Source: a virus
Taxonomy: Duplodnaviria; Heunggongvirae; Uroviricota; Caudoviricetes
DNA length: 33,073 bases
IMG/VR virus record: IMGVR_UViG_2879765931_000003
Direction: 5' to 3' (one strand)
Shown: in pieces, positions 1,832 to 27,320 of the stretch
Position numbering within the stretch: the first letter of the stretch is position 1
Layout of the letters: the number at the start of each line of letters is the position of its first letter
Notes under the pieces: generated by a model
Databases searched by the model: none
The model's input: the letters and a program-made list of their open reading frames with translations, nothing else
Told to the model about the DNA's origin: nothing
Made by a program: the position numbers and the translations under genes

Positions 1832-1866
1832 CGCTTCAATGGGAAATTGTTGTCGCCATTGTTCGA

Positions 1867-2169: not shown

Positions 2170-2233
2170 TATTAGCTCCTTCTGATGCCATTCTATTTCA
2201 GGAAGGAGTGTCCGTTAAACTCAGGCTACCTCA

Positions 2234-3391: not shown

Positions 3392-4913
3392 CTATAGGTT
3401 AAGTTTTTTGTTAAATACTAATATTACTCTTCCTTCAAAGTTCAAAACTTCGTCAGGCTTACCTAATTGTTCTTGAATACCTGCAAGGCAGGATGTCATT
3501 TCTTTACATCGTTCAGGTTCGTTAGCTATGGAAACTGCTATAAACTGTCGCTCAGGAGCAGAATTGAACGCCTCCTTGCTATGCCAAGAAGCCAGTGTCT
3601 GTTGTCTCACGCCAGTAAAGTTAATTTTCCCCGAATCAGCATTAAAGAAAACAGGAGTTATCTGTATGTCCCCACCAGATAACCAATTTACAGTCATTGA
3701 CAAATCCCAAAAAGAGCCGTACCCATAATGGAGATTATTTTTTTTTAAAAAATCAATGTATGATTTAACAATCTTCTCCTGATCGTGTAATGGTGAAGCA
3801 TTATTTGTGTAAGATTTAATTGAACTGATCGAAAATAAAAATGCGATTAGATAAAATAATATCTTTGCTTTTGTTGATGTACCGATACAGCACAATATCA
3901 GTGCGAAACAGGTAACATTCATAAAGAAACGCATGCTAATATAATCAGGGGATTTATAGCTCAGTATGAATGATGAGACAATACCTGCGATAGATAATAA
4001 TGAAAATAACACAATATAAATACGGTATGTGTTTTTTTTTATTGTCCGATAAAACAAACCACGCAGATGTAATAATGGCAATGAACCAAATGACAAATGA
4101 GGCGTAAGATGTTGCGTTATTGTCGACAACTAATAAATTAAGACTTTTTCCTATTAACAGAATGCACCATTTTGCATTTAAAATCATATCATTGAGTGAT
4201 ACAATTTCAAATTGGTGGGGAGGTATGTTAAGTAGATTTTGCAATACATTGGAAAGAGAGATTAAACATGCAAATAGTATTAATGCAGTATGCTTAAATA
4301 ATTTTTTATCCCATACAGAGAATAAAAAGTAAGATATTAATAGTGGAATAAGAAATGCAGCTGTAAACCACGGATCGGATACGCTGGAAAATAATGCTGT
4401 CAAACTTAAGAGGAGAGTGATAAATATATTTTTATACTGTATGTTGAAAACAGATATAAGCAAGCATAAAAAGCCGAAAGCGTTTGTTGAATTATGAGAA
4501 AAAGGATGTGATACAAAACCATAAGTGTATGAAAAATATGGTATTAGAGATAGAAGTATAATAGAAAATAAAGCAGGGGTAAACCCGAATGCCTTACGTA
4601 GCGTTAACATCGCTGCTATTACTATAGCAATAGAGAAAACTGCAGTTGATAATCTTAATGCTACTAAGCCATCATCACCTAACAGCATATAAAATAAAAA
4701 GTTAATTGGGTAAACGGTGAAATACCAATTATCCACGGTTGGTTTCCAGTCGTGGATTGATGATATACCATTCTCTAAAATATGCCTCCATACAATTGGG
4801 CTGTTAGCAACATCCGGTTCAACTGGAAAGTATCTGGTAGTCAACCAAGTTATTAGGAGTGCTGATAAAGCCAATAATATTTTTAATGCTGATTGTTTAA
4901 TACATATGCTCAT
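3392..4913 (-). pseudogene. GtrC-family type-specific O-antigen glucosyltransferase, read in two frames that overlap at a T9 (coding-strand A9) run at 4032-4040
   Basis: Polytopic membrane protein directly downstream of gtrA-gtrB in the usual gtrABC arrangement. ORF 3954-4913 (319 aa) and ORF 3392-4129 (245 aa) both cross the A9 run in different frames; a +/-1 change in the run would give one ~506-aa protein. Very AT-rich. Confidence 0.7.
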
Positions 4914-6267: not shown

Positions 6268-6320
6268 CTGATGAGACAAAACTGAGACACATAAGGCCTC
6301 ACAATGGCTTGCAAGGCTTT
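6268..6320 (-). promoter_or_regulatory. Conserved upstream block shared with the acyltransferase locus (candidate promoter/leader of the conversion cassette)
   Basis: Reverse complement AAAGCCTTGCAAGCCATTGTGAGGCCTTATGTGTCTCAGTTTTGTCTCATCAG matches 14168-14220 at 43 of 53 positions; both lie about 73-125 nt upstream of the start codon. Confidence 0.45.
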
Positions 6321-6396
6321 ACATGTTTTGATGTGGTGGGACGTGTGAGCGCAGTGTTGATGGGATAATCCTTTGAATTACAAGCGGATTCTTATA

Positions 6397-6442
6397 ATTC
6401 GTAATGCGAAGGTCGTAGGTTCGACTCCTATTATCGGCACCA
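6397..6442 (+). other. Phage attachment-site core: 46-nt 3' end of tRNA-Thr (thrW-type), not an intact tRNA
   Basis: ATTCGTAATGCGAAGGTCGTAGGTTCGACTCCTATTATCGGCACCA is the anticodon-loop-to-CCA portion of tRNA-Thr(CGU) as I recall it; the upstream sequence does not continue the tRNA. Confidence 0.8.
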
Positions 6443-6456
6443 TTTAAATCAATAAG

Positions 6457-6815
6457 TTACCTCGCATTTAAGTAAACTACGTTCTCCTCTTGTGCCGTAT
6501 TTGTGCCATTGCGACTTATAATCGCATCGATTTTGCTCGCGTGCTCGGTGAGATGCCCGGCTGAAAGGTGGGCGTATCTTTGAACCATTTCGAGAGTTTC
6601 CCATCCTCCCATCTCTTTAAGCGCAAGAAGAGAGACACCGGACTGAACCAGCCAGCTTGCCCAGGTATGCCTCAGGTCATGGAAGCGGAAGTTGCTAATG
6701 CCTGCCCGCTTTAACGCTCCCTTCCATGCCTTGTTGCTGTCGGTTCTCATCTTCCTTACCGCTGCTGTTTTTGTTCCGTCGCTTCGGTAGGCAGGTTTGG
6801 TGTGGACAAACACCC
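6457..6815 (-). pseudogene. int: Phage tyrosine integrase, C-terminal fragment (a third, divergent int), 5'-truncated by IS600
   Basis: ...[55 protein letters not shown]...; stop lies 14 nt from the att core, the same geometry as int copy B. Confidence 0.8.
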
Positions 6816-6858
6816 TGAGGTGTACTGGCAATAGCGGACACTACCATTTGTTCTTTTT

Positions 6859-7677
6859 TTAAGCAGCCATCTGATGATATTTTTCCCTGAAGGCAGCCGG
6901 GGAGATATTCCCCAGACGAGAGTGACGACGCTGACGATTGTAGAAAATCTCAATGTATTCCCGTATTACTGAGATGGCTTCATCCCGGTTATTAAAACGA
7001 TAGTGGCTCAGGCTCTCATTTTTCAGCGTTCCCCAGAAGCTTTCCATCGGAGCGTTGTCGTAACAGTTACCTTTACGCGACATTGATGTTTTCAGACCAA
7101 ACTGCTCCTGTATGACCCGGTAATCGTATGCGCAGTACTGTGAACCTCGATCAGAGTGGTGGATTAGCCCGGCAGGTGGGCGCTGGCTCCTGAGCGCCAT
7201 AAACAGGGCTTTACCTGTCAGCTCTTTTGTCATGCGCTCTCCCATGGCGTAGCCGACAATTTCGCACGTATAAACATCTTTGATGCCAGCGAGGTACAAC
7301 CATCCCTCCTGTGTGGCAACATACGTCAGGTCCGCCACCCAGACCTGATTTGGTGCTGTAGGAGCGAACGTCTGGTTCAGCAGATTTGGCGCAACTGGCA
7401 GATTGTGGTTCGGGTTCGTAGTCGCTCTGAACTTGCGTTTCTGCTTACAGCGTAGCCTCAGCTCCTTACGAAGACGTGCCAGTCGGTCACGACCAACGAT
7501 GATGCCATTCTCTGCCAGCTCCGTCTGGAGCCGCCGGGTTCCATATGTTTCGCGAGTGCGGATATGTGCCACCTTAATCTCCGGTTTTAGCCGCTCATCA
7601 CTTTGTTTTCTGTCTGAGGGTTCATGCTGTACCCAGTTGTAATAACCGCTCCTGGATACACCAAATACCTGACACAT
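6859..7677 (-). CDS. IS600 OrfB
   Basis: 272 aa DDE transposase. Confidence 0.88.
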   Translation of the reverse strand: MCQVFGVSRSGYYNWVQHEPSDRKQSDERLKPEIKVAHIRTRETYGTRRLQTELAENGIIVGRDRLARLRKELRLRCKQKRKFRATTNPNHNLPVAPNLLNQTFAPTAPNQVWVADLTYVATQEGWLYLAGIKDVYTCEIVGYAMGERMTKELTGKALFMALRSQRPPAGLIHHSDRGSQYCAYDYRVIQEQFGLKTSMSRKGNCYDNAPMESFWGTLKNESLSHYRFNNRDEAISVIREYIEIFYNRQRRHSRLGNISPAAFREKYHQMAA

Positions 7678-7712
7678 CGCTTCAATGGGAAATTGTTGTC
7701 GCCATTGTTCGA

Positions 7713-8015
7713 TTAACGCGTATTTTTCAGCGACTCCTGTGCAAAATACGCTGTTGCTTTTTTTAATATATCTCGCTCAAGGCGAGCTTCATTTAACGCC
7801 TTACGCAGTTGCAGAATTTCAGATTCCAGTTCAGCCAGCGTGCGGGAACCAGGAGTACCGAGCCCTTTTCTGGCGGCGGTAACCCATTGTCCTAAAGTGC
7901 CTTCAGGAAGAGATAATCGGGAAGCGCCTTCACTGATCGAAAGTTGATTTTCAAGAACCGTTCTGACAGCTTCGGCTTTGAACTCTTTAGAGTAACGTTG
8001 GGTTTTTCTGCTCAT
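7713..8015 (-). CDS. IS600 OrfA
   Basis: 100 aa, near-identical to the other copies. Confidence 0.88.
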   Translation of the reverse strand: MSRKTQRYSKEFKAEAVRTVLENQLSISEGASRLSLPEGTLGQWVTAARKGLGTPGSRTLAELESEILQLRKALNEARLERDILKKATAYFAQESLKNTR

Positions 8016-8177
8016 TATTAGCTCCTTCTGATGCCATTCTATTTCAGGAAGGAGTGTCCGTTAAACTCAGGCTACCTCAGACGTCCCGTATGATGGATAT
8101 GAAATCAAGACAATCACACATCCTGAACCGCCCCGGGAATCCTGGAGACTAAACTTCCTGAGAAAGAGGTAAACAGG

Positions 8178-8500
8178 ATGACTAAAAATACTCGTTTTTC
8201 CCCCGAAGTCCGTCAACGGGCAGTCCGTATGGTTCTGGAAAGTCAGGGCGAATATGACTCACAATGGGCGACAATTTGTTCCATTGCCCCAAAGATTGGC
8301 TGTACGCCGGAGACTCTGCGTGTCTGGGTTCGCCAGCATGAGCGGGATACCGGGGGCGGTGATGGAGGGCTCACCACCGCTGAACGTCAGCGTCTGAAAG
8401 AGCTGGAGCGTGAAAATCGTGAACTGCGCCGCAGTAACGATATCCTTCGCCAGGCTTCCGCTTATTTTGCGAAGGCGGAGTTCGACCGCCTCTGGAAAAA

Positions 8501-8504
<4 letters not shown>
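8178..8504 (+). CDS. IS629-like OrfA
   Basis: 108 aa HTH/leucine-zipper OrfA of the IS3 family. Confidence 0.82.
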
Positions 8505-9387
<883 letters not shown>

Positions 9388-9429
9388 GTTCACAGATAAA
9401 ACACTCTCCAGGAAACCCGGGGCGGTTCA

Positions 9430-10035: not shown

Positions 10036-10092
10036 TGGAGCCATACAGCCTCACACTCGATGAGGCCTGTCATTTTCTCAAGATTGAAGTGG

Positions 10093-11296
<1,204 letters not shown>

Positions 11297-12294
11297 CTCT
11301 GTTCAGGTGGCCAAATTCAGTGTGCCACTTCAGATATCCAGACCGACTGCCATTAACTGGATACGCACAGGGCGTCTTCAGGCAACACGCAAAGATCCCA
11401 CTAAGAATAAATCTCCTTACCTCACAACACGACAAGCCTGCATTGCGGCTCTTCAGTCTCCGCTGCATACTGTCCAGGTGAGCGCGGGTGATGGCATAAC
11501 AGAGGAAAGAAAATGTCACTCTTCCGCAGAGGTGAAATATGGTACGCCAGTTTCACATTGCCGAACGGTAAAAGATTTAAACAGTCTCTTGGAACAAAGG
11601 ACAAAAGGCAGGCGACAGAACTCCATGACAAGCTAAAGGCTGAAGCATGGCGGGTCAGCAAACTTGGTGAAATACCTGATATAACGTTCGAGGAAGCGTG
11701 TGTCAGGTGGCTTGAAGAGAAAGCACATAAAAAATCACTGGACGATGACAAAAGCCGGATCGGATTCTGGCTTCAACATTTCGCAGGAATACAACTAAGA
11801 GACATTACTGAATCAAAAATTTATTCAGCAATGCAGAAAATGACGAACCGGCGTCATGAGGAAAACTGGAAACTCAGGGCAGAATCATGCAGAAAAAAAG
11901 GGAAACCTGTTCCAGAATACACGCCAAAACCAGCGTCCGTTGCAACGAAGGCTACGCATCTTTCATTTATAAAGGCCCTACTAAGAGCCGCAGAGCGTGA
12001 ATGGAAAATGCTGGATAAGGCACCAATTATTAAAGTGCCTCAACCAAAGAATAAACGGATCCGCTGGCTGGAGCCCCATGAAGCACAAAGGCTGATTGAT
12101 GAATGTCCGGAGCCATTAAAGTCTGTTGTTGAATTTGCACTGGCAACAGGCTTAAGACGCTCGAACATCATCAACCTTGAATGGCAACAAATAGATATGC
12201 AGCGCCGGGTGGCATGGATAAACCCGGAAGTGAGGTAGCCTGAGTTTAACGGACACTCCTTCCTGAAATAGAATGGCATCAGAAGGAGCTAATA

Positions 12295-12597
12295 ATGAGC
12301 AGAAAAACCCGACGTTACTCTAAAGAGTTCAAAGCCGAAGCTGTCAGAACGGTTCTTGAAAATCAACTTTCGATCAGTGAAGACGCTTCCCGATTATTCC
12401 TTCCTGAAGGCACTTTAGGACAATGGGTTACCGCCGCCAGAAAAGGGCTCGGTACTCCTGGTTCCCGCACGGTGGCTGAACTGGAATCTGAAATTCTGCA
12501 ACTGCGTAAGGCGTTAAATGAAGCTCGCCTTGAGCGAGATATATTAAAAAAAGCAACAGCGTATTTTGCACAGGAGTCGCTGAAAAATACGCGTTAA
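12295..12597 (+). CDS. IS600 OrfA
   Basis: 100 aa. Confidence 0.88.
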   Translation: MSRKTRRYSKEFKAEAVRTVLENQLSISEDASRLFLPEGTLGQWVTAARKGLGTPGSRTVAELESEILQLRKALNEARLERDILKKATAYFAQESLKNTR

Positions 12598-12632
12598 TCG
12601 AACAATGGCGACAACAATTTCCCATTGAAGCG

Positions 12633-13451
12633 ATGTGTCAGGTATTTGGTGTATCCAGGAGCGGTTATTACAACTGGGTACAGCATGAACCCTCAGACAG
12701 AAAACAAAGTGATGAGCGGCTAACACTGGAGATTAAGGTGGCACATATCCGCACTCGCGAAACATATGGAACCCGGCGGCTCCAGACGGAGCTGGCAGAG
12801 AATGGCATCATCGTTGGTCGTGACCGACTGGCACGTCTTCGTAAGGAGCTAAGGCTACGCTGTAAGCAGAAACGCAAGTTCAGAGCGACTACGAACCCGA
12901 ACCACAATCTGCCAGTTGCGCCAAATCTGCTGAACCAGACGTTCGCTCCTACAGCACCAAATCAGGTCTGGGTGGCGGACCTGACGTATGTTGCCACACA
13001 GGAGGGATGGTTGTACCTCGCTGGCATCAAAGATGTTTATACGTGTGAAATTGTCGGCTACGCCATGGGAGAGCGCATGACAAAAGAGCTGACAGGTAAA
13101 GCCCTGTTTATGGCGCTCAGGAGCCAGCGCCCACCTGCCGGGCTAATCCACCACTCTGATCGAGGTTCACAGTACTGCGCATACGATTACCGGGTCATAC
13201 AGGAGCAGTTTGGTCTGAAAACATCAATGTCGCGTAAAGGTAACTGTTACGACAACGCTCCGATGGAAAGCTTCTGGGGAACGCTGAAAAATGAGAGCCT
13301 GAGCCACTATCGTTTTAATAACCGGGATGAAGCCATCTCAGTAATACGGGAATACATTGAGATTTTCTACAATCGTCAGCGTCGTCACTCTCGTCTGGGG
13401 AATATCTCCCCGGCAGCCTTCAGGGAAAAATATCATCAGATGGCTGCTTAA
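12633..13451 (+). CDS. IS600 OrfB
   Basis: 272 aa. Confidence 0.88.
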   Translation: MCQVFGVSRSGYYNWVQHEPSDRKQSDERLTLEIKVAHIRTRETYGTRRLQTELAENGIIVGRDRLARLRKELRLRCKQKRKFRATTNPNHNLPVAPNLLNQTFAPTAPNQVWVADLTYVATQEGWLYLAGIKDVYTCEIVGYAMGERMTKELTGKALFMALRSQRPPAGLIHHSDRGSQYCAYDYRVIQEQFGLKTSMSRKGNCYDNAPMESFWGTLKNESLSHYRFNNRDEAISVIREYIEIFYNRQRRHSRLGNISPAAFREKYHQMAA

Positions 13452-13956
13452 AAAAGAACAAATGGTAGTGTCCGCTATTGCCAGTACACCTCAAAGAGAG
13501 TAAATCAAACCGCGCAATTGGCGTTGCGCTGAATGATACTGCATGTCGCGTATTGAAAAAACAAATCGGAAATCATCACCGTTGGGTATTTGTGTACAAG
13601 GAAAGCTGTACCAAACCAGACGGAACGAAAGCGCCAACAGTAAGGAAGATGCGGTATGACGCAAACACAGCCTGGAAAGCGGCGCTGAGACGGGCTGGTA
13701 TTGATGATTTCAGATTTCACGACTTGAGACACACCTGGGCAAGTTGGCTGGTTCAAGCCGGAGTCCCGTTATCAGTGTTACAGGAAATGGGAGGCTGGGA
13801 GTCTATCGAAATGGTTCGTCGATATGCTCACCTCGCACCTAATCACCTTACCGAACACGCACGGCAAATAGACTTGATTCTGAACCCATCGGTCCCAAAT
13901 TTGTCCCAGTCAAGAAATAAGGAAGGTACTAATGATGTGTAACTTATTGATTTTAA

Positions 13957-14002
13957 TGGTGCCGATAATAGGAGTCGAACCTACGACCTTCGCATTACGA
14001 AT
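13957..14002 (-). other. Second phage attachment-site core: 46-nt tRNA-Thr 3' end in inverse orientation, not an intact tRNA
   Basis: TGGTGCCGATAATAGGAGTCGAACCTACGACCTTCGCATTACGAAT is the reverse complement of the core at 6397-6442; the 14-nt spacer to the int stop is nearly identical at both sites. Confidence 0.8.
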
Positions 14003-14167
14003 CTGTAGCACCAATCATAACTATCTGTTTTAGCAAGCATTAACCGCATTCACTAAGCTATAGTTGATGACACAAACAGAAAGTTGATGCATGATGTTGC
14101 CATATATATGTCACAAATACGGCACAACGATCTTCAAACATATAGCCACACATTCACAGAAGAGCAC

Positions 14168-14220
14168 AAAGCCTTGCAATCCAGTGCAAAGCTTGGTGTG
14201 TCTCCGTTTTGTTTCATCAG
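14168..14220 (+). promoter_or_regulatory. Conserved upstream block (paralogue of 6268-6320), candidate promoter/leader of the acyltransferase gene
   Basis: AAAGCCTTGCAATCCAGTGCAAAGCTTGGTGTGTCTCCGTTTTGTTTCATCAG, 71-123 nt upstream of the start codon. Confidence 0.45.
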
Positions 14221-14290
14221 TTACACATAACTATATGATCATTAACTAAAAGTCAGTATACTTGGAGAAATTTTAATTGCGTAATAGAGC

Positions 14291-15463
14291 ATGCATATGA
14301 TTGAAATTAACAGTTTATTATTAATAACATCCGTGATATTGATGTCGTTATTAGCTGTGGGGTTATTTGATAAAATTTCCCCAATAAATCTTGTTGAGCA
14401 CGGCAGGAATAATCAAATAGATGGAATGCGGGGGTTCTTAGCAATTTTCGTGCTTATTCATCACGCAGCAATTTGGAATGGATACTTGTCATCTGGAGTA
14501 TGGGAAGCACCTTCATCAAATCTGTTAGCAAATTTAGGCCAAGTTGGTGTGTCATTCTTTTTTATGATTACTGGTTATCTGTTCTTTTCAAAGATTATCT
14601 CTGGAGATCAGGACTGGACAAGGCTTTATGTATCAAGATTACTACGATTAACCCCAATGTTCATAGTTAGCCTATGTCTCATTTTTATCATTGTAGGTTT
14701 TAAGTCTGGATGGAGAATGCAGGTATCCACAGAAGAGCTTTTTGTGTCAATAATGAAGTGGTTGCCATTCACTGCGCTAGGTATGCCGAACATTAATGAC
14801 GTAAAAGATTCATTTACTATCAATGCCGCTGTAACATGGACACTTGTATATGAATGGTTCTTTTATTTTTCTCTTCCGGTAATTTCCGCGCTCATAAAAA
14901 GAAAAGTCAGTATTTACATGGTTATGATTAGCGCAATATCGCTATTTGTTTTCATTTTATTTTTCAGTAAAATACACATAGCATCATTTCTTTTTGGGCT
15001 CCTGGCATTTTTGCTAAATAAATCAAAGATAGTCAATGGAATTGCCAAAGCAAAAGTAACACCAATTATAATAACTGCGATAATGGTTTTTGAAATGACG
15101 TATTTCAAAACAACTTACGCACCGCTACCACTGATTCTTTGTGGAATAACATTTATCATTATCGCATCAGGTTGTGATTTGTATGGAATATTAAGATTAA
15201 ATATAACCAGAAAGCTAGGAGAAACTACCTACAGCGTTTACCTTCTGCATGGGATATTCCTTTATTGCCTAATGACGTGGATTATTCCTAATAATTACAC
15301 TGAAAATACATTTATCATACTGGTAAGCACAACTGCATTTCTTATTACGTTCACATCATGCCTAACTTTTAAATTAATAGAGACGCCATTCATCAAATTA
15401 ACAAAACAAACCACAACTTTAGTAAAAGAATTAATACCCACATTAACAAACAACAATCAATAA
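14291..15463 (+). CDS. Acyltransferase family 3 integral membrane protein; candidate O-antigen O-acetyltransferase (Oac-like) conversion gene
   Basis: 390 aa, multi-TM; N-terminal ...DGMRGFLAIFVLIHH... and ...SFFFMITGYLF... motifs of acyltransferase-3 enzymes; occupies the cargo slot between att/int and the tailspike; AT-rich. The exact start (14291 or 14297) is uncertain. Confidence 0.78.
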   Translation: MHMIEINSLLLITSVILMSLLAVGLFDKISPINLVEHGRNNQIDGMRGFLAIFVLIHHAAIWNGYLSSGVWEAPSSNLLANLGQVGVSFFFMITGYLFFSKIISGDQDWTRLYVSRLLRLTPMFIVSLCLIFIIVGFKSGWRMQVSTEELFVSIMKWLPFTALGMPNINDVKDSFTINAAVTWTLVYEWFFYFSLPVISALIKRKVSIYMVMISAISLFVFILFFSKIHIASFLFGLLAFLLNKSKIVNGIAKAKVTPIIITAIMVFEMTYFKTTYAPLPLILCGITFIIIASGCDLYGILRLNITRKLGETTYSVYLLHGIFLYCLMTWIIPNNYTENTFIILVSTTAFLITFTSCLTFKLIETPFIKLTKQTTTLVKELIPTLTNNNQ

Positions 15464-15476
15464 ACAATAAACATAA

Positions 15477-15508
15477 GCCGCCCTACATATATGTCCAAAT
15501 GGGGCGGC
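15477..15508. terminator. Putative bidirectional hairpin between convergent acyltransferase and tailspike fragment
   Basis: GCCGCCC-(17 nt)-GGGGCGGC followed by an AT-rich stretch. Confidence 0.3.
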
Positions 15509-15516
15509 GAATGTAT

Positions 15517-16224
15517 TTATATTAGTCTGGTAATGCTAAATGCAAACGAACTGGAGATTCCTGCCCCGCTAAGCGTATTGCGCAGGGTCACCCTAAATGT
15601 ATCTACGCCAATATAAGTAACATCACAACTAACTGAATCAGGCGCAGATATAGGTGTTATCTGCACAATATAACCGCTAGCAACTGCTGCGAGCGGATGA
15701 GAAAAGCTAACATCATACACACCTGTAGAAACCACGTTAACCGATGAAACACCAGTAGCAACGTCGATACTACCATTGGCGTTAATTTTTCCCGAGCGTG
15801 TGACTGACAATGCAGAAGCCGATGTTACCTTACTGGTTGTTTCTGTAAAAACACACCCAATGTCAACTACCTCGCAATTAGCTCCTGTTATCCAGTATGG
15901 TCGTTCTGCACTTGGCTGATAATCCCCTGCGCTCTGGAACGTTGTGCCGTTGAGTATGACTGTAACTTTTCCCCCACCTGAGCTTGTTACTTGAATATTC
16001 GTGTGCGTGTATCTTGCACTGCTCACGCGATGAAAATTTCCACCGTTTATAACCACAGTTACAGGGCGCGTCCCAGTATTATCTATAGCAAGGTCTGCCC
16101 CCCCGGCATTAGCCTCAAAGTATGGGTTGTTTAATACCAAAGCGCACGAACCGTTAAGGCCATTTATAGCTAATTGCGCACCACCTGTACTGGAATCCCC
16201 CTGAGTACCATTTCCTTCACAAGT
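15517..16224 (-). pseudogene. Tailspike / tail-fibre receptor-binding protein, C-terminal ~235-aa fragment (N-terminus removed by IS600)
   Basis: Reading frame open from the IS600 boundary to the stop at 15517; Gly/Ser/Thr/Asn-rich beta-strand-like repeats; position downstream of the ejection genes as for P22 gene 9. Confidence 0.5.
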
Positions 16225-16266
16225 TGAGGTGTACTGGCAATAGCGGACACTACCATTTGTTCTTTT

Positions 16267-17085
16267 TTAAGCAGCCATCTGATGATATTTTTCCCTGAAG
16301 GCAGCCGGGGAGATATTCCCCAGACGAGAGTGACGACGCTGACGATTGTAGAAAATCTCAATGTATTCCCGTATTACTGAGATGGCTTCATCCCGGTTAT
16401 TAAAACGATAGTGGCTCAGGCTCTCATTTTTCAGCGTTCCCCAGAAGCTTTCCATCGGAGCGTTGTCGTAACAGTTACCTTTACGCGACATTGATGTTTT
16501 CAGACCAAACTGCTCCTGTATGACCCGGTAATCGTATGCGCAGTACTGTGAACCTCGATCAGAGTGGTGGATTAGCCCGGCAGGTGGGCGCTGGCTCCTG
16601 AGCGCCATAAACAGGGCTTTACCTGTCAGCTCTTTTGTCATGCGCTCTCCCATGGCGTAGCCGACAATTTCGCACGTATAAACATCTTTGATGCCAGCGA
16701 GGTACAACCATCCCTCCTGTGTGGCAACATACGTCAGGTCCGCCACCCAGACCTGATTTGGTGCTGTAGGAGCGAACGTCTGGTTCAGCAGATTTGGCGC
16801 AACTGGCAGATTGTGGTTCGGGTTCGTAGTCGCTCTGAACTTGCGTTTCTGCTTACAGCGTAGCCTCAGCTCCTTACGAAGACGTGCCAGTCGGTCACGA
16901 CCAACGATGATGCCATTCTCTGCCAGCTCCGTCTGGAGCCGCCGGGTTCCATATGTTTCGCGAGTGCGGATATGTGCCACCTTAATCTCCGGTTTTAGCC
17001 GCTCATCACTTTGTTTTCTGTCTGAGGGTTCATGCTGTACCCAGTTGTAATAACCGCTCCTGGATACACCAAATACCTGACACAT
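16267..17085 (-). CDS. IS600 OrfB
   Basis: 272 aa. Confidence 0.88.
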   Translation of the reverse strand: MCQVFGVSRSGYYNWVQHEPSDRKQSDERLKPEIKVAHIRTRETYGTRRLQTELAENGIIVGRDRLARLRKELRLRCKQKRKFRATTNPNHNLPVAPNLLNQTFAPTAPNQVWVADLTYVATQEGWLYLAGIKDVYTCEIVGYAMGERMTKELTGKALFMALRSQRPPAGLIHHSDRGSQYCAYDYRVIQEQFGLKTSMSRKGNCYDNAPMESFWGTLKNESLSHYRFNNRDEAISVIREYIEIFYNRQRRHSRLGNISPAAFREKYHQMAA

Positions 17086-17448
17086 CGCTTCAATGGGAAA
17101 TTGTTGTCGCCATTGTTCGATTAACGCGTATTTTTCAGCGACTCCTGTGCAAAATACGCTGTTGCTTTTTTTAATATATCTCGCTCAAGGCGAGCTTCAT
17201 TTAACGCCTTACGCAGTTGCAGAATTTCAGATTCCAGTTCAGCCAGCGTGCGGGAACCAGGAGTACCGAGCCCTTTTCTGGCGGCGGTAACCCATTGTCC
17301 TAAAGTGCCTTCAGGAAGAGATAATCGGGAAGCGCCTTCACTGATCGAAAGTTGATTTTCAAGAACCGTTCTGACAGCTTCGGCTTTGAACTCTTTAGAG
17401 TAACGTTGAACCGCCCCGGGTTTCCTGGAGAGTGTTTTATCTGTGAAC

Positions 17449-18331
<883 letters not shown>

Positions 18332-18335
<4 letters not shown>

Positions 18336-18658
18336 TTTTTCCAGAGGCGGTCGAACTCCGCCTTCGCAAAATAAGCGGAAGCCTGGCGAAGGATATCGTT
18401 ACTGCGGCGCAGTTCACGATTTTCACGCTCCAGCTCTTTCAGACGCTGACGTTCAGCGGTGGTGAGCCCTCCATCACCGCCCCCGGTATCCCGCTCATGC
18501 TGGCGAACCCAGACACGCAGAGTCTCCGGCGTACAGCCAATCTTTGGGGCAATGGAACAAATTGTCGCCCATTGTGAGTCATATTCGCCCTGACTTTCCA
18601 GAACCATACGGACTGCCCGTTGACGGACTTCGGGGGAAAAACGAGTATTTTTAGTCAT
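18332..18658 (-). CDS. IS629-like OrfA
   Basis: 108 aa, identical to copy 1. Confidence 0.82.
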
Positions 18659-18783
18659 CCTGTTTACCTCTTTCTCAGGAAGTTTAGTCTCCAGGATTCC
18701 CGGGGCGGTTCACGTTGGGTTTTTCTGCTCATTATTAGCTCCTTCTGATGCCATTCTATTTCAGGAAGGAGTGTCCGTTAAAC

Positions 18784-20514
18784 TCAGGCTACCTCAACTC
18801 TCTTTTCAATAGGGTCAAGGTTTTTCATCCCGCCAAGATCTTCTGCCACCTGTTTGAGCATTGACCTTGTTGATGGCGCATCAATTTTTGCACCTGCAGG
18901 CATCGCCTTTTCAACATTGCGATAAAGCTGGTCGCTTCGTTTCATCAGCGCAGACATTCTTCCATTGACCGTATCAATAAACTTGTCGCTCATACCAAGA
19001 GCATCTTTTGCACCGGAAACGCGATCAATTATCTCACCCGCGCCCTGTGCTAGCTGCCTGATTGCTTCATTTTCCTGCACCTGTAGAGCAGAACCCGCAC
19101 GGGACTTGATTGCTTGCTCAACTGCCTTGTATTGCTCGTTCCCGGAAAAGTGTGAAGGGAGTAATGAATCAACATTAAGCCTTTCAGCAGACTCCAGAAC
19201 TTCAGCCTGAGGATTGATATCTAGTTCATCAAGCGATGAAGCGAGATTTGGCCTTTTTTGTGCTGCTACTGTGCGAACGACTTCCTCTGGGTTCTTCGTC
19301 GCAGGCGTCATTGGTACACCTTGTGCTACTCTTGCCTCTGCGGCATGAACCGCAGGATTTGTTGCTGCAGCGGCATCACCGGAGAATGGTGATGTTTCTG
19401 TTGGCGCAGTGGTCGCTCTCTGTGCAGATGTTTTATTGCCACTAATTATATTTGATGCACCACGAACACCACGGGTAACGCCATTTATCAGGCCATGCGT
19501 AGCAATGCTAAGTCCGGCATTAATAGCGGCATTTTCGGCAAAATCACCCCGTTGATTCGCCGCGTCAGCGAGAGAACCAATGACCATGTTTCCAGCTACA
19601 CCTGCTCCAGGAACAAGATAACCGCCTATTGACTCTCCAGCTTGCGCGTAGGGGTCTGTCGGTCTGTCTACTGGACGATAAACATCATCCAATACTTTTG
19701 GCCCCCCAAGCCCCTGACTGATTGCATTAATCAGACTTGCGCCACCCTGCAATACGTCAAATGGTATGTTTACCAGACCACGACCAGCCTGTTCTGCAAT
19801 TTGCCCTGCACTTTGACCACCAGTGAGCCAATCGCCAGCTTGTTGCATCAATGATGGTTCTTCCCGTGTTGGTGCATTATTGGCCTGATTAACTGTTTGT
19901 TGCTGAACAGGTTTCGGTGCGACAGAACTTACGGGTTGAGGTGGCTGCTGACTGGCTGCCTGCTGCTCAATCTGAGCAAATGGATTATTTGGGTCTGACT
20001 GCACACCTGATGCCGATACTTGTTCGGATGACTGTACTTCCAGTTGTGCAAACGGGTTGTTAGGGTCTTGCTGAGGATGTACCTTTGCAGAGGTGGCGCG
20101 CTGTTCGACTGTTGAGTCTGTCACCGGGTCACCAGCCCATTGAGCAAAGCGATCATCAACGTAACCGCGGCCTTCAGGTCCTGGCGTATATTCACCACGC
20201 TTTGCCTTCATAACGTTGCCGGGACCGTCGTGATAAGCCTGAAGAGCGTCACGCCAGTTACCAAACTGCTGGTACATCTTTGCCAGATAGCGCGCGCCAG
20301 CGTCAGCCTGATATTCGGGGTTTTGCATTTGCTCATCGGTATAACCCATATCACGCCATGTCCCAGGCATGACCTGAGTCAATCCTACAGCCCCGGCGGA
20401 GCTTACTGCGGCAGGGTTGTAAGAAGACTCCTTGGCACCCAGTGCAGTCATCAACCCTTCTGGCACACCGTAACGTGCGCCAGCCTGCTCTAACAAATCA
20501 CGGTAATTAGCCAT
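18784..20514 (-). CDS. Ejection (injection) protein at the P22 gp16 position, with an N-terminal lytic-transglycosylase (SLT)-like domain; C-terminus replaced by the IS600 end
   Basis: 576 aa; ...[28 protein letters not shown]...[11 protein letters not shown]... resembles SLT motifs; the last codons and the stop lie within the IS600 terminal repeat. Confidence 0.6.
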
Positions 20515-21846
20515 TTACTGCCCCAAAGATGGAAGATATCCGTAGCGATTAATGAAGTCGATTGACAGCTCGGGGTGCTGCTTCAGGTAATCTATAGAAG
20601 CCTGAGGCGCTTCCACTCGCTTGATACCGTTTTGCTGAACGTACTTACCAACCGCCTCATTACGCTTCTGGTTGAGCGTGTTCAGGATGACGCCAGCGTT
20701 GCGACGAAAGGACTCCTCGCTCTGCGAGTTCTGCAGCGAACCAACAGCCTGGTCGAGCTTTTTGCCCTCGGCATCAGAAAGTGCGCCCATGCCTCGCATG
20801 GCCTGAACCGCTGTCAGGTATGCTTGTGATTTAAAGGTATCAAGTCGTGCCTGAGTGTCTGCAGCCTGTGAGCCTGGAACGTTGGGGATTACTCCACGTA
20901 AGCCTGTAATGCTCTTAAGTGAAGGAGAACTAACGATATCGTTCAGAGTGAACATGCTGGTTGTGAGGGTGTTGATGCCGTCTTTGTAGCCATCATTTAG
21001 CGCTTGCTGCTTCTGCTGCAACTGCTGGTTGTTGGCTGCTATGCGGCTCTGTATTTCCTGGCGCTTCAGGTCGTTAGTTTCTGCTGATAGCATCCGGTCA
21101 AGGCGCTTATTTTCGTTGTTAATGCGGTTTGTTTCTGCGTCCAGATTAATGCGCTGCTGACCTAAATTCGCCTGGATATCTTGTCCGCGCATTGTGATTG
21201 CCTGATTCCGAGCGGCGGTTTGCGAATCCAGATCCTGACCGCGCATGGTAACCTGGCGACCCTGCATTTTATCCTGTAGGTCAAAGTATTTTTCGGGCCC
21301 GAGACTGTTCATCCCCAGGTGATCGACAAATTCGCCGAACTGCCGCGGGTTCTGTTGGTACATCTGAGCGACGTCATGAGGATTAACGCCAACACGAGCT
21401 AACTCACCGGCGTTGTTTTGCAGCCATGATTGCATTGCTTCTGGAGACGATGACGCAAGGCGTGCGCCAGCCGCTAAGGTGCCGATAGAATTACGCTGCT
21501 CTTCATCAATGAATCCCATGCCTTTACGAACGGATTCAATCTGGTCTGGATATTGAGTAGCCAACTGACGCAAAGCACCGCGATCACCAGACGCATAAGC
21601 ATTAGCGTACGCCTGCTGAAATTCTTTCTGCCGCTGAGCCTGCTTTTCCTGCTGAAAAACACCCGCAATACCTGAAAGACCTTGCAAAGCAGTCAGCCCA
21701 ACATTGTTAGCGCCTGAACGCTCAATATCATTGTTCTGCCTGATAAGCTGAAGCGTATTGCCGATGTCATTTACGCTCGGAGCGTTTGAGTTGACGCCGC
21801 CGATACCAGCCAACAATCCGCCGTTTGTTCCTTGCCAAGTAGCCAT
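20515..21846 (-). CDS. Ejection protein at the P22 gp20 position
   Basis: 443 aa, coiled-coil/Gln-rich, synteny between gp7-like and gp16-like genes. Confidence 0.6.
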   Translation of the reverse strand: MATWQGTNGGLLAGIGGVNSNAPSVNDIGNTLQLIRQNNDIERSGANNVGLTALQGLSGIAGVFQQEKQAQRQKEFQQAYANAYASGDRGALRQLATQYPDQIESVRKGMGFIDEEQRNSIGTLAAGARLASSSPEAMQSWLQNNAGELARVGVNPHDVAQMYQQNPRQFGEFVDHLGMNSLGPEKYFDLQDKMQGRQVTMRGQDLDSQTAARNQAITMRGQDIQANLGQQRINLDAETNRINNENKRLDRMLSAETNDLKRQEIQSRIAANNQQLQQKQQALNDGYKDGINTLTTSMFTLNDIVSSPSLKSITGLRGVIPNVPGSQAADTQARLDTFKSQAYLTAVQAMRGMGALSDAEGKKLDQAVGSLQNSQSEESFRRNAGVILNTLNQKRNEAVGKYVQQNGIKRVEAPQASIDYLKQHPELSIDFINRYGYLPSLGQ

Positions 21847-21855
21847 GATTACCCC

Positions 21856-22548
21856 TTAAAACAACGAGCCAAGCAATCCGATACCAGCACCAATACCAGC
21901 GCCCCAAGGCGTTGATGTTCCCAAAAGGCTGGCAAGACCTGCACCGGCAATCGCACCAGACGTGCCACCGCTAATTGCAGTCTGAAGACTTGATGGTTTA
22001 TTGGCATTAGCAGCGGCAAGAGCTGCGCTTTGCTGTGCAATGCTGCTCATGTTGTTGGCGTACGTCTGCCCGGCGTTTGCCTGACCTTGCAGCGCACCAA
22101 GCCCAACGTTTGCCAGATTGTTGTAATTGCTCATCTGATTTGATAACCAAGACTGACCGAGTGTCGGCGCGATCGTAGCCAGTTGATTGCTTGTGGCTGT
22201 CGAACCAAGTCCACCCGTCGCCTCCGCAGCAGCAAGACTCTGGTAACGCGCCTGCCCTGCAAGGTCTTTATACTGCTTAGAGTTGTAATACTGATTAAGT
22301 GCCTGCCCCTGACCTTCTAAACTGGAAAGGTTCTGAAGCTGGTTAACATACTGCTCCGCAAGAGGCGTGAACGGAGCAAGGTTTTTCATGATCGTCTGCC
22401 ACTGCTGATTTTGCAGGTCTGCAGCATACTTCTGGGCTTCTGCTGCATACTTTGCGCTTTTATCAGAACTGCCACCTTTCCCGCCTTTTTCAGGGCAATA
22501 AGGTTCCTCGCCGCGCAGTTTTCTGCCCAGCTTAAATGCATATAACAT
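21856..22548 (-). CDS. Ejection protein, P22 gp7-like
   Basis: 230 aa, MLYAFKLGRKLRGEEPYCPEKGGKGGS..., Gly/Ala-rich C-terminal hydrophobic tail. Confidence 0.7.
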   Translation of the reverse strand: MLYAFKLGRKLRGEEPYCPEKGGKGGSSDKSAKYAAEAQKYAADLQNQQWQTIMKNLAPFTPLAEQYVNQLQNLSSLEGQGQALNQYYNSKQYKDLAGQARYQSLAAAEATGGLGSTATSNQLATIAPTLGQSWLSNQMSNYNNLANVGLGALQGQANAGQTYANNMSSIAQQSAALAAANANKPSSLQTAISGGTSGAIAGAGLASLLGTSTPWGAGIGAGIGLLGSLF

Positions 22549-22550
22549 GG

Positions 22551-23009
22551 CTATCTCCCGTGATTCAGGAAGTCGATTAGTTCTTCGCGTGTGGCGCTGT
22601 AAAAAGTCACGTCATCCACGCCTTTGAAGTATTTCTTGATGGTTCCTACACGCTTAAGGCCAATCATTGCGCAGTACATCTGACCGTGTCGGAATTTGCG
22701 TGCAGCGAACGATGTTACGCACTGAACGGTGGTGTTAGTCAGAATGTATCGCCAGAACGCCAGCCCAATTTCCTTGCTGAAGCCGCGAATCTCTGGCAGG
22801 TACATGGCGTGGCAATCTAATGTCAGCGGCTGAATCTCCTGATAGTAAACAATGCCGCCAAACTGACCGTGCACGTTCACCTCAAAGTAACGGCATTCAG
22901 GTTTGTAGTCGTATCCATCACCGTTGTTGCTCCCGGCGATAATGTCAGGGTGATTTCCGACTGCTTCTATCAGGTCGATGTTTCGCGTTGGTTTGAATGT
23001 AATCATCAC
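22551..23009 (-). CDS. P22 gp14-like protein (assigned by position)
   Basis: 152 aa between the needle and gp7-like genes; assignment by synteny only. Confidence 0.45.
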
Positions 23010-23854
23010 TGCTCCGCGATTATCTTGATGGTTGTGGCAGTAAACGCCGCACCATTCGACTGAATGGTTAACGTACTGCCATTTGTGGCAAGAAAGCCGT
23101 CTTTATCCACGCTGAAGAACGTAGCTAACAGGATGTTGTCGGTTGTTGTCGCCGCATTACGACTGCTGACCAGTGTGTCAGGAACAGAGTCGGAAAAGGT
23201 TAGCTGCATTGACCTGTTGGCGGTTCCGCTGGGCCACGTGCCGACAATCGACAACTTGAAGAGCAGGGTTTTGTTCTCGTTGAACACAACCATCTTGTTG
23301 TTAACGGTGTCGAAGAATGGTGCCAACGAGCCGGATGACGGTGTGAGCGTTTTCAGCAGGCTAACAAGGTTGGTCGGCGCTGTCGGGATGGTTACAGATA
23401 CACCAGAGTAAACAACCTCTGACTTCTTGCGTGTGGTTGCATACTCCAGAGCATCGATGCGCGTTTCATGGTCTGAAACCTGCGACTCCAGCGACTGAAC
23501 TCTTGTGTCAAGCGACGAAATATCGCTTTCATTCTGAGCTATTCGTGTTTCATGGTCCTGAAGAGTTGATTCTGCCTGTCTGATTCGCTCCTCATGATTA
23601 ACAAGCGTTGCTTCCGCAGCAGAAATTCGCTGCTCATGGTCAGCGAGAATCACATCCTGCTCATCGTTCCTGACCTGTGCATCATAAGCGCCCTGTCCGG
23701 CCTCGTTGGCTTTGTTAGCCACGTTACCAACATCAGTGCCCTGTGCGATAACGTAAAGCAGATACGACTGCGAGAAGATATTGCGTGGAAGGACTGATGT
23801 ATCGAGCCGCGTAGCTTGGATGATTACCGGCACATTGAGATTCGAATCAGCCAT
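23006..23854 (-). CDS. Tail needle (P22 gp26-like) with an extended C-terminal domain
   Basis: [43 protein letters not shown]... N-terminus and heptad coiled-coil; 282 aa versus ~233 aa for P22 gp26, the extra residues being C-terminal. Confidence 0.8.
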
Positions 23855-25272
23855 TACTCAATCCTTATCTGAGCGCCAGACAGAGTGACAGGTGACTTCG
23901 TGATAACGCGCAATTTGAAGCCGACATTTTTCCTGATGCGCCCTACTCGCTTCCACAAAACACGCTTGTCGTAAACGAACGGTTCATTCTGCTCAATCAT
24001 CTGCTCACGCCCGTAATTGATGCAGTCAGTGGTTGCAGAGAGAAAAAGGCGGTCGGCGTACTGCGCAACGCCAGTTGACGATTCAACCTCAAGGTCGAAC
24101 ACTCTGGCGTTATCCGCTTTGAAGAGTGGAGTAAACAGCAGGTGTTCCTGTTGCTTGTCGTACTGGCTGCTGATATCGAATTGCAGTTTCCCGGTAACAG
24201 ATTCCAGCTTATCGCCGCACGTTATCTGATTGCCTTCGTAAACGAAGTCGATAGCGCGGTACACATCGTCATACAGACCTGTTTTCAGCACACACCATTG
24301 TGGGCCATTGGCGCTTGAAGATGCGTCGTACACGAGGACGTGACGCGGAAGGTGGATAATCAGCAACTCATGAGCATCAAATCGCAGCGATTCCATCACA
24401 CCATCAGCCAGTTCATCAGCAGTGTAGGAGCGGAGGATTTTCTCAATGCTCGCGCTGGCAATTGGTGACACCTGACCGGAGTCGATGATATACACAGACG
24501 GCGCACCCGTTGCCGGATTGCTGATAAACGCATACGAATCAGCGAATGGCGTTTTGCAGTAAGTTCCGGCAATGCCTTTCTGCACCATCAGCGATGGTTG
24601 TGCAACATACAAAGCGGCACCAACGGTGGTTGCGCCAGTCAGGGAGAAATATTCAATAGTCGATGAACCAAAGCAGACGATGAAGTCTCGCCATGTCCCG
24701 ATACCGATGATGCCGTCAGGCTGAGACTCGGCACGATATTGTGCGCTGTAACGGTCAGGATGAGATTCGTCTTCAAGGTCAGTGATAAACCATGAATCAG
24801 TTCCGTCTTTTGACCACGCATAACGCCCACGTAAGCGCGTAATGTCGCGAACTGAACCTAACTCATACTGAGTGAATCCACTGTCTGTAGGCCAGTTTGA
24901 GACGGTTTTGACCGTGCCATCATAGCGATACTCGACCAGTTGACCATTAACGCCTACCGCCTGTGATGTCCGACCATGCGCCATTGATACACGACCACTT
25001 CCGGCAACATCACCGACTTCACTTTCTCCTTTGTACAGCTTGCCGCCACACACGCGATAAACAGCATTCTGCGCCATGTTGTACTCGACGCCGCGAGATA
25101 CACCGTTCACGTCAGAACGTTTGGCAATGCCCGGGAATGAGCGAAGATATCCGCTGCTGTTCAGGATTTCTTTGGGTGTAGCCAGCATATTCACTGGCAG
25201 ATAGTCGATATAGTCGGCGTTTCGGAAGTCTTTGCCGACACCTTTCATAAGCGGAAGTTGCTGAATAGGCAT
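23854..25272 (-). CDS. Tail accessory / head-completion protein, P22 gp10-like
   Basis: 472 aa, [49 protein letters not shown]... Confidence 0.85.
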
Positions 25273-25772
25273 TATTCGCTCCCGTTATCGCAAGGTTCCT
25301 TTCGGTGGAAGTAATTCCAACCATTCCACTTCGCCAACTGGTTACCACTACCAACAGGCATACGGTTTGGATAACCGGACTTACATTTAGCTGCTTTTGC
25401 CCTGTCCATTGCAGACAGTTTGACGAGTCGCTCTTTCCCGTATCTGGCAGTGGTTATGAGTTTTGCAGACGCTTCCAGCGCATAATCTGGAGCAATTCGG
25501 CAGGCAAGGTTGAAAATGACGGCATTGATAGCGTTATTTGATAAACCGTGCTCATCGCCCGGATCCGGAGCAACATCTGCATCAGCAAAAATGTAGCCAA
25601 CGTTGATACCAGGTGACGCATCACCGCCAAGCCATTCAGCCATCATCATTTCAAGGTCGTTGACGCCGTCTTCCATAGACTGCGGTTCGACATCGGTTAA
25701 CGTGGCATTTGATGCAACACCGAGCTTACGTAATGCCGCAAGAACTAAATCACCCTTCGTTGTCAGGTTCAT
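25272..25772 (-). CDS. Tail accessory / head-completion protein, P22 gp4-like
   Basis: ...[29 protein letters not shown]...[14 protein letters not shown]...; start set at the internal Met ([10 protein letters not shown]) by analogy with gp4, while the listed ORF extends to 25841. Confidence 0.75.
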
Positions 25773-26028
25773 CTGCTGCCGCCTTAGGTTTTCGACCAGG
25801 CTTTTTACGCTGTTTTTCTTCTGGCTCTGGCTCTGCAACATCCTTCAAAAGGTCATCAGGATGTGAAAACCAGCCAGCATCCAGATATTCCTGAAGCTCT
25901 TCGGCTTTCACGATTTCAAAGTCGTAGCCAACGCCTTTCCACTTCTTCATGTCGCCATGACGAAAGATCATGTGTGTCATGCTTGTCTCCAGATAAAAAC
26001 GGGAGCCGAAGCTCCCTCTGGTTATCAC
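25750..26028 (-). CDS. Small hypothetical protein between coat and gp4-like genes
   Basis: 92-aa ORF with a charged C-terminal tail ([27 protein letters not shown]). Confidence 0.4.
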
Positions 26029-27320
26029 GCGGTCTGGTTAGGCAGACCAACACCAATTGCCTCTGGTCGTACAGCACATGCTGAATACCACACAGCAATA
26101 CGGCACTTACCAGACAGAGTGTTGATATCACCCTGCGTTGCGAAGATGCCGTTAACACCAATACCTGGAATGCTGAAGGAAGACGTTTTCATGCCAGCAA
26201 ACAGTTCATGGGTTACCGGGATCGGCTGAGACAGCAGGCGGATTGAGTCATCAGCCCAGAACACGTTAGCGGTGGTTGTTGCCACGTTCAGAACGTTTAC
26301 CGGAGTGGTATCAGCAAGAGAGGTGTTTACGTTAGCGTAAGCCTTCTCTTCTTTTGTCAGTGACGCGTCATCCAGCGCAATCGGCTTCGGCGTGATTTCG
26401 ATGTGAGTACCATCGATCACACGGGTGATTGAGAAAGTCGCGTCATCAGTCAGCACATTCTTCGCCATCTGAGACAGGAACTTCACACCAATGAAGCTGA
26501 TTTTGTCGCCGCGCTTAAATCCGGTGGTGGAGGATACGGTCACCGTTGCAACACGGTTGTCGACGTTCTCTTTGTTACCATCGGTATCAAGGGTGTATGC
26601 CTGCGGCTTAAACTTCTGCGCACCAGAAACAGTTACACCAGTCGCGGTTGACTTGGTAACTGCCGGAAGTTTCGGTGAGCGAAGAATTTCATCAAAGCCA
26701 GCAATCTGACGCTGAATAGTACCGTTTCGATATGCTTCTTCAGGAACGCGCCCGAAGATGTCACCATCTACCAGGTTGCGGCCTGCTTTGCGGTAATCGT
26801 CAGGGTTCAGGAAGTAACTGATGCCCATGTCGCGGTTTAGCTCACGGGAGAACATCAGTCGCTCTGCATCAGACACAAAATCCCAGCCAGGCAGGCCAGT
26901 CGATGGACCAATTGCGCGGGTATCGTGAACAACAAGCGAGCCCATTTCAGTTGCCTGTTTGGCAATCGCTGACTCAATGTTATTCGCCAGTTTTTTGGCG
27001 GATGCCTGGATGCGGCGACGGTAAGAACGCTCATCACGCAGGTCATCTGCACGAAGCTCGAAGAAATCGTTATCCGGATCGCCCATGTTGCACTTCACGG
27101 AGAGTTCCAGAATCCCGGTTGCGTTGCCAGTTAAATCCCAGCCAGTCTGGGTTGGCGCTTCCTGCTCAACAGGCATCCACACGGTGTTGCTTGAACGCTG
27201 CATGGATTCTGCCGGAGGGGAGTATTTTGTCACTTTTGACGCCATTGGCGTCAGGTTCTGGACGGTTCCGATGATTTCATCCAGAGCATACGTGACCAGT
27301 TGACCTTCATTTAATGCCAT
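26025..27320 (-). CDS. Major capsid (coat) protein, P22 gp5-like
   Basis: 431 aa, [21 protein letters not shown]...[16 protein letters not shown]... Confidence 0.9.

Follow-up and report, generated by a model that had tools for sequence, protein, structure and literature searches.

The O-antigen acetyltransferase gene oacB in the P22-type cargo slot of a decayed prophage array

Which O-antigen sugar would be modified by the acyltransferase encoded next to the integrase in the viral record IMGVR_UViG_2879765931_000003, and how did its gene reach that position? This Caudoviricetes record from IMG/VR (33,073 nucleotides, the whole of which we call the window) carries, within the interval 13943-15508, one gene for an acyltransferase-3 (AT3) protein, with a phage attachment (att) core and an integrase gene (int) on one side and a tailspike fragment on the other. 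A sequence-only reading had suggested that this gene is a lysogenic-conversion O-acetyltransferase gene in the place of gtrABC in a P22-like prophage, and that its product was either a Shigella O-acetylase already described or an enzyme of distinct specificity. The analysis presented here identifies the gene as oacB, which has indeed been described, and no distinct specificity is expected. More tentatively, it suggests that oacB came with a P22-like phage of the thrW type and that a conserved hairpin marks the boundary of the slot in which such phages carry their cargo.

The open reading frame (ORF) runs from an ATG at 14291 to 15463 on the + strand and encodes 390 amino acids (aa). A Pfam search returned PF01757 (Acyl_transf_3) only (E 2.8e-32, residues 41-353 of 390), with no second or fused SGNH domain, and a crude hydropathy scan gave at least eight hydrophobic stretches, in line with the membrane AT3 protein first proposed; none of the NCBIfam models matched the 390-aa protein (0 matches). 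The gene is also AT-rich relative to its phage neighbors, as had been claimed; its G+C content is 0.339, whereas int has 0.463, the tailspike fragment 0.454, and the P22-like structural genes 0.51. Using megablast against phage genomes, we found that positions 14159-15508 share 99.5% DNA identity with the oacB region of the serotype-converting phage Sf101. The two OacB proteins (O-antigen O-acyltransferase B, a stand-alone AT3) are identical at 388 of 390 residues and differ only at positions 231 (A in the window, V in Sf101) and 266 (V and I, respectively). Exactly these two differences, A231V and V266I, distinguish OacB of Sf101 from OacB of Shigella flexneri 2a strain 301 (SF0315), while other alleles carry I382M (PMC4159516). 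The window protein has A231, V266, and I382, and therefore corresponds to the reference allele of strain 301. OacB needs residues R47, H58, W71, F98, R116, R119, and S146 (PMC8952252), and all seven stand at the expected positions in the window protein. The exact 390-aa protein was found on at least 1000 public contigs under the title 'MULTISPECIES: acyltransferase [Shigella]'. Moreover, the 1566-nt interval 13943-15508 is identical, save for 1-2 single-nucleotide polymorphisms (SNPs), in eight complete Shigella chromosomes fetched via this protein, and 21 kb of the window (4291-25463) are 100% identical to a public complete chromosome (CP026871.1). On these sequence comparisons, we are in hardly any doubt that the ORF is the known gene oacB of S. 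flexneri in its strain 301 (SF0315) reference allele. No evidence contradicts this identification; the gene is already characterized, and a new specificity is not expected.

The substrate position, which the sequence-only reading had held to be unreadable, can be named from the literature on this gene. OacB acetylates, in part, rhamnose III of the O-antigen at O-3 and to a lesser extent at O-4, which gives rise to group O-factor 9 (PMC4159516, PMC4206707). Nuclear magnetic resonance (NMR) analysis of the polysaccharide of Sf101 lysogens revealed OacB-dependent O-3/O-4 acetylation of rhamnose III (PMC4159516). The gene has also been knocked out and complemented in strain 301, and oacB and oacC are interchangeable. 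Given its identity to a characterized oacB, the acceptor position of the window enzyme should therefore be O-3/O-4 of rhamnose III. Hence, 3/4-O-acetylation of rhamnose III and O-factor 9 are expected for the window OacB, as has been published for this very protein or for one 99.5% identical to it. OacB would act as an inner-membrane AT3 protein that takes acetyl groups from cytoplasmic acetyl-CoA. By analogy with work on AT3/TmAT proteins, its membrane domain would pass the acetyl group to the periplasmic face and onto the O-antigen repeat unit.

The AT3 fold alone gives no specificity prediction, and both the protein family and the type of prophage slot are those of the oac gene of phage Sf6. 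These two points would suit an AT3 O-acetyltransferase of other specificity, either new or equivalent to Oac/OacA (2-O-acetylation of rhamnose I), OacD (6-O-acetylation of N-acetylglucosamine), or OacC. The comparison with characterized O-antigen acetyltransferases that had been called for argues strongly against it. Oac/OacA of Sf6 was rejected as the identity of the window protein, with only 25.5% identity over 184 aa (E 7e-6). OacD was rejected as well, as BLASTP detected no significant similarity between the window protein and the 349-aa AT3 protein beside gtrII in the SfII remnant, which by its position and the literature would be OacD. Proteins of the OacC type (serotype 6, SfII-like prophage) are only about 72% identical, whereas the window protein is of the OacB type at 99-100%. 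With 99.5% identity to an NMR-validated OacB allele and the residues of the reference allele in place, we give another specificity next to no credence. Graded relatives of OacB were also seen in IMG/VR, at 72% (loci L144 and L145), 50% (L146 and L147), and 32% (L148) identity. The relatives at 72% are OacC-like and lie at separate loci, one of which (L145) has a thrW-type core approximately 1.8 kb upstream. Those at 50% come from viral contigs of metagenomes.

The DNA to the left of oacB bears on how the gene arrived. The adjoining tyrosine integrase gene is split into a 5' part at 11513-12230 (+), covering codons 1 to ~239 (PF00589; 99.4% DNA identity to int nt 1-722), and a 3' part at 13495-13942 (+; PF00589, E 1.2e-30), which aligns to int nt 716-1164. 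The reference in both cases is the intact 387-aa int that adjoins oacB in other Shigella chromosomes. Between the two parts lies a 1264-bp insertion sequence (IS) at 12231-13494 (+), a copy of a 1.2-kb repeat with ORFs of 100 and 272 aa (HTH_Tnp_1, rve), which from the size of the element and the lengths of its ORFs we take to be IS600. The Int protein adjacent to oacB is 99% identical to Int of SfII and SfI and 90% identical to that of P22, and it is unrelated to Int of Sf101. Next to int, a 46-nt att core (13957-14002, -) equals the 3' end of the tRNA-Thr gene thrW by direct alignment to thrW of E. coli K-12. The segment 13946-14212 is 98% identical to the attP regions annotated in several phages, among them HK542 and mEp213, which integrate at thrW; it includes a P' arm of the SfX/HK542/mEp213 type at 14003-14158 (+; megablast). 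SfX and the HK542 group match through approximately 14212-14219, SfI, SfII, SfIV, and SfV match only to 14002, and Sf101 homology starts at 14159.

An ARAGORN search of the whole window found no complete tRNA gene, thrW included, and a search of E. coli genomes with a 53-nt core returned, among the matches listed, only unannotated phage-derived copies. Since a phage arm lies on each side of the core and a full tRNA gene is absent, the locus is an attP-type junction rather than thrW, attL, or attR. The proposal of a prophage at a thrW-type att site was thus right about the core, which is the thrW 3' end, but the junction is an unrecombined one within an IS-scrambled array of remnants and not the end of a prophage at thrW. 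A comparable arrangement was observed in E. coli GDSC2BY4G (NZ_CP136025.1 3722935-3726634), where a P22-like prophage has the same thrW-type int and attP region, with the tailspike gene directly after it and an empty slot. As int, attP, and tailspike are contiguous in that chromosome, its attP is not the junction through which that prophage integrated.

The order of genes in the window, namely int, att core, cargo, and tailspike, is that of P22, and the cargo gene is codirectional with int and convergent to the tailspike gene. In the P22 annotation, the tailspike gene (+) is followed by gtrC, gtrB, and gtrA (-), the gtr promoter, the attP core, and int (-), and oacB replaces gtrABC in the window. 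The assignment to the gtrABC slot, between a tailspike fragment and an att core with int, therefore agrees with the P22 map in both order and orientation, and both flanks were found. On this reading, oacB is carried as cargo by a P22-like prophage, in the att-proximal slot for conversion genes that gtrABC fills in P22.

The block upstream of oacB had been described as paralogous to one in front of gtrA, and we observed that the shared sequence consists of two parts. One of them, the att core, is seen as an inverted repeat of 64 nt (13939-14002 versus 6397-6460). The second is an element of approximately 55 nt found at 14164-14217 (+) and 6274-6324 (-). In front of oacB it includes a conserved hairpin (14164-14199) and a U-rich tail (14206-14214), and it forms the left edge of the oacB cassette. 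The paralogous copy before gtrA (6274-6442, -) joins a thrW core at 6397-6442 to a hairpin block at 6274-6324, as delimited from repeats, pattern matches, folding, and alignment to thrW. A 28-nt pattern of the element occurs twice in the window versus 0.01 times expected by chance. The element is also present before gtrA in SfX and P22 and before oacB in Sf101 and E. coli G3/10, and the homology of the latter two to the window starts exactly at this element. The P22 copy (NC_002371 21170-21220, -) has the attP core on one side and, on the other, the annotated gtr promoter together with its GATC sites. A scan of IMG/VR with an exact 19-mer located the element on at least 120 contigs.

Several analyses support a hairpin. 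Single-sequence folds of the two window copies gave z-scores of -2.2 and -3.1, and RNAalifold on 52 distinct sequences returned a 12-bp consensus stem with 97% of cells paired. One pair changes from C-G to U-A in eight sequences and several other changes are compatible with G-U pairing on the cargo strand only, a covariation support that is modest, given that the search pattern fixed the 5' arm and that the variants are lineage-linked. Conservation ends just past the U-rich run, and the gene that comes first after it varies widely. With the fetched Shigella and phage loci counted in, this gene encodes GtrA 18 times and OacB 16 times; elsewhere it encodes an omptin, a beta-flower protein, a diguanylate cyclase of the MASE4-GGDEF type, a RES-domain toxin, or one of two further AT3 proteins. 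The U run begins 6 nt past the stem and a simple terminator scanner made no call at this hairpin; in the SfII record KC736978, a putative rho-independent terminator is annotated at this position. A search of Rfam with 13800-15600 on both strands, at E values up to 1, yielded nothing beyond a chance match to a snoRNA (20 bits versus a gathering score of 50 bits), and the hairpin thus belongs to no curated RNA family.

Two other identities were considered for this block and rejected. Dam/OxyR phase variation of P22 gtr has been reported to act at a region with four GATC sites. These sites lie downstream of the block in P22, and the block precedes cargo other than gtr as well, which argues against its being the phase-variation region. 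Two GATC sites are found upstream of oacB, and the one internal to the cassette is lost in Sf101. An arm-binding site for Int is equally hard to reconcile with a block that moves with oacB into phages of unrelated integrases (Sf101, E. coli G3/10). In our reading, the hairpin is a putative terminator or insulator that would double as a recombination joint of the cargo slot. As such, the segment 14164-14217 would probably stop transcription entering from int or from the host.

How the oacB element came to Shigella chromosomes has been discussed previously. A published hypothesis states that oacB was mobilized from an Sf101 prophage at sbcB (PMC4159516), and the literature terms the oacB block a 'transposon-like structure' upstream of adrA, a view credited to Wang et al. 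(2014, J Bacteriol 196:1525), who described OacB of strain 301. According to this explanation, the gene would have arrived as a composite IS600 transposon from Sf101 and not via a thrW-specific oacB phage. Two IS600 copies do bracket the int-attP-oacB-tailspike' block in 2a-type chromosomes, in accordance with the term used in the literature. However, the DNA left of the cassette in the window is a thrW-type attP arm with int rather than orf17 and int of Sf101, and Sf101 homology stops at 14159. To the right of oacB, the IS600-cut tailspike remnant (15517-16223, -) comprises the C-terminal third of the gene. Its 207-aa ORF (15517-16140) is only 76% identical to residues 374-580 of the Sf101 tailspike and 82% identical to the tailspike of the E. 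coli G3/10 prophage. Beyond the following IS, 11 kb of P22-like virion genes continue in the correct order and orientation. This module (18797-30231, -) is bounded by a truncated gp16-like SLT protein and a truncated portal protein, and it is part of the prophage remnant that also holds oacB. It is 95-97% identical to the P22-like coliphages APC_JM3.2, IME10, and Sf101, with Pfam matches to SLT, P22_portal, Inj_translocase, P22_gp7, Phage_stabilise, and P22_Tail-4, and it is colinear with Sf101 in gene order and orientation (oacB, tailspike, small ORF, gp16-like, and onward).

An IS-free, P22-like oacB phage of the thrW type also exists. IMGVR_UViG_2713896773_000006 (37.5 kb; positions 27011-37546) combines an int of the thrW type (99.5%) with the core, the hairpin, oacB (99.2%; its ORF reads 397 aa), a full tailspike gene of 586 aa, and a gp16-like gene, and it is 94% identical to the window minus IS600 over 3464 nt. 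From this comparison, it appears to represent the intact architecture behind the chromosomal oacB element of Shigella. We found no mention of this contig in the publications consulted. With these observations at hand, we consider the transfer of oacB by an IS600 transposon from Sf101 unlikely. The gene was also seen in a third integration context, as the commensal E. coli G3/10 (Symbioflor; NZ_CP060075.1 3372979-3375917) carries the Sf101 oacB allele (A231V, V266I) in a P22-like prophage, at the prophage end that directly adjoins ybhB in the bio-ybhB region. Considering the thrW, sbcB, and ybhB-adjacent contexts, the P22-like phages that carry oacB use no fewer than three integration modules.

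The window also contains other remnants of the thrW type. Copies or fragments of such int genes were found at 1-969 (-), 6457-6831 (-), and 11513-13942 (+), plus two att cores, all in 14 kb. The copy at 1-969 is 99% identical to the int adjacent to oacB and is cut elsewhere by another IS600. This number of int sequences and att cores suggests that lysogeny at thrW was tandem and that decay driven by IS came afterwards, which would leave an array of two or three thrW-specific prophages, at the least, rearranged by IS600. Several thrW-specific phages, SfI-like and the P22-like oacB phage, would have integrated in tandem and then decayed. Such a tandem integration would explain why int, attP, and oacB are contiguous in the chromosome.

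We further propose two more novel ideas, to which we give somewhat less than an even chance. The hairpin would be an uncharacterized, functional and mobile boundary element of lambdoid prophages, acting as a terminator or insulator and as a recombination joint at which att-proximal cargo is exchanged. The chromosomal oacB element would be what is left of a P22-like phage that integrated at thrW in a tandem lysogen with SfI or SfII, and not a transposed piece of Sf101.

Several points weigh against the overall account. The history of tandem integration is read from the layout of the genes, and transposition of an IS600-flanked block offers an alternative to it. The match to OacB of strain 301 (NP_706267.1) is drawn from published allele differences rather than from a direct alignment. 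The start codon is ambiguous between 14291 and 14297, as databases hold both a 390-aa form (MHMIEIN...) and a 388-aa form (MIEIN..., starting from Met3). A GAG 7 nt upstream favors the second ATG (14297), and the published residue numbering is that of the 390-aa form. In addition, a promoter scan found no convincing sigma-70 promoter between the upstream hairpin and the start of oacB, and the promoter-like sites that it returned (12) were not in excess of the shuffled expectation (8.3 ± 2.8). Expression of oacB in the strain from which the window derives is a prediction.

The last two points raise the question of whether oacB is intact but silent. The decay of the prophage, with IS600 in int and adjacent phage DNA lost, and the hairpin just upstream would then leave the gene without effective transcription and the strain without O-factor 9. 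Such silence would be in agreement with the lack of a strong promoter-like site in 14218-14290 and with a putative terminator directly 5' of the gene. On the other hand, 13943-15508 is the same as in 2a-type chromosomes of the layout for which a functional oacB is known, but for one SNP at 13954, outside the cassette. Strain Y394, which also has the gtrI-plus-oacB arrangement of the window, is positive with specific antiserum. We thus find a silent oacB quite improbable, and expression of an OacB with the known specificity remains our expectation.

On the other side of oacB, a GC-rich hairpin (15471-15514, assigned to neither strand) separates the convergent oacB and tailspike genes and closes the oacB cassette. 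It has a folding energy of -20.3 kcal/mol and z-scores of -4.3 (+) and -2.5 (-), and it is likely a bidirectional terminator. A simple terminator scan did not call this 15471-15514 hairpin. The tailspike remnant is interrupted by an IS600 copy with a nested IS3-family element of approximately 1.31 kb (16224-18796, -), delimited from our repeat families I1, I4, I9, and D4 and from colinearity with Sf101. This insertion replaces about 2.5 kb of phage DNA, namely the 5' part of the tailspike gene, a small ORF, and the 3' part of the gp16-like gene. IS600 copies lie at 970-2233, 6816-8079, 12231-13494, and 16224-17406. All IS spans of the window (970-2233, 6816-8079, 8103-9429, 10085-11332, 12231-13494, 16224-18796, 30232-31480, and 31845-33073) add up to about one third of its length. 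They comprise the four IS600 copies (one nested), a second copy of the nested IS3-family element, two copies of a 1.25-kb IS that is presumably IS911-like, judging by its OrfA sequence, and an IS2-like element at the right end of the window. The P22-like phage is dead here, as int is split by IS600, the head-binding part of the tailspike is lost, the portal gene is cut by an IS, and the early region is missing.

The gtrA/gtrB/gtrI cluster of the window is of the SfI type, and its gtrI gene (3392-4913, -) is 99.9% identical to that of phage SfI. A run of eight T at 4032-4040 has become nine T, a frameshift that reduces the 507-aa glucosyltransferase to a 319-aa product. One substitution is also present, at 4352, and the sequence with nine T is also found in CP026871.1. 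The extra T may be a real inactivation, with loss of the type I antigen, or a homopolymer sequencing error.

The finding of oacB is correct but ordinary, since the gene is already known and lies in a public genome, and it adds no new gene biology. What OacB does is of established relevance. The O-factor 9 that it produces bears on how vaccine antigens are designed for S. flexneri 1a, 1b, and 2a. Acetylation of rhamnose III also blocks infection by phage Sf6, and deletion of oacB in strain 2457T leads to sensitivity to this phage. Only two aspects are new, and mildly so, namely the hairpin of the cargo slot and the view of chromosomal oacB as the stump of a thrW-type P22-like phage. In many lambdoid prophages, the cargo slot begins at this hairpin, which could aid in annotating conversion and defense cargo. 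The window also shows more of the donor phage than the usual 2a-type locus, and together with the IS-free IMG/VR contig it clarifies that oacB travels in P22-like phages with different integration modules.

Compared with known systems, the closest is the oacB locus of the strain 301 type, which has the same immediate neighbors (thrW-type int, att core, tailspike remnant, and IS600). It differs in that the window int carries an extra IS600 and that the window has the gtrI (SfI) cluster instead of gtrII. Moreover, adrA follows the IS there, whereas P22-like virion genes follow it in the window. The chromosomal context known for oacB is the proA-adrA region. In 2a-type chromosomes, the 1566-nt interval has adrA (MASE2-GGDEF) within 3-6 kb and the virion module is absent; adrA lies outside the window. 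Phage Sf101 (KJ832078, orf16) shares 99.5% DNA identity from hairpin to terminator, an oacB gene convergent with the tailspike gene, and a P22-like genome. It is distinguished by another integrase, the sbcB site, orf17 upstream instead of the thrW attP arm, a tailspike with 76% identity, and the A231V and V266I changes. Sf6 Oac, to which the locus had also been likened, is likewise an O-antigen acetylase of the stand-alone AT3 kind, with its gene placed between those for tailspike and Int in a P22-like Shigella phage, and that part of the parallel holds. However, Sf6 Oac acetylates O-2 of rhamnose I, and the limited identity of its protein was given above. The att type of Sf6 is also different, the conserved hairpin is absent, and the parallel is looser than that with P22 because the attP core of Sf6 lies on the far side of int. 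The gtrABC locus of P22 encodes a three-gene glucosylation operon instead of the one acetyltransferase gene of the window, and its region of four GATC (Dam) sites between hairpin and gtrA has no counterpart before oacB. Nevertheless, P22 gtrABC and SfI gtrA-gtrB-gtrI share with the oacB locus the succession of int, thrW-type attP core, hairpin, and cargo, convergent with the tailspike gene in P22 or with tail fiber genes in SfI.

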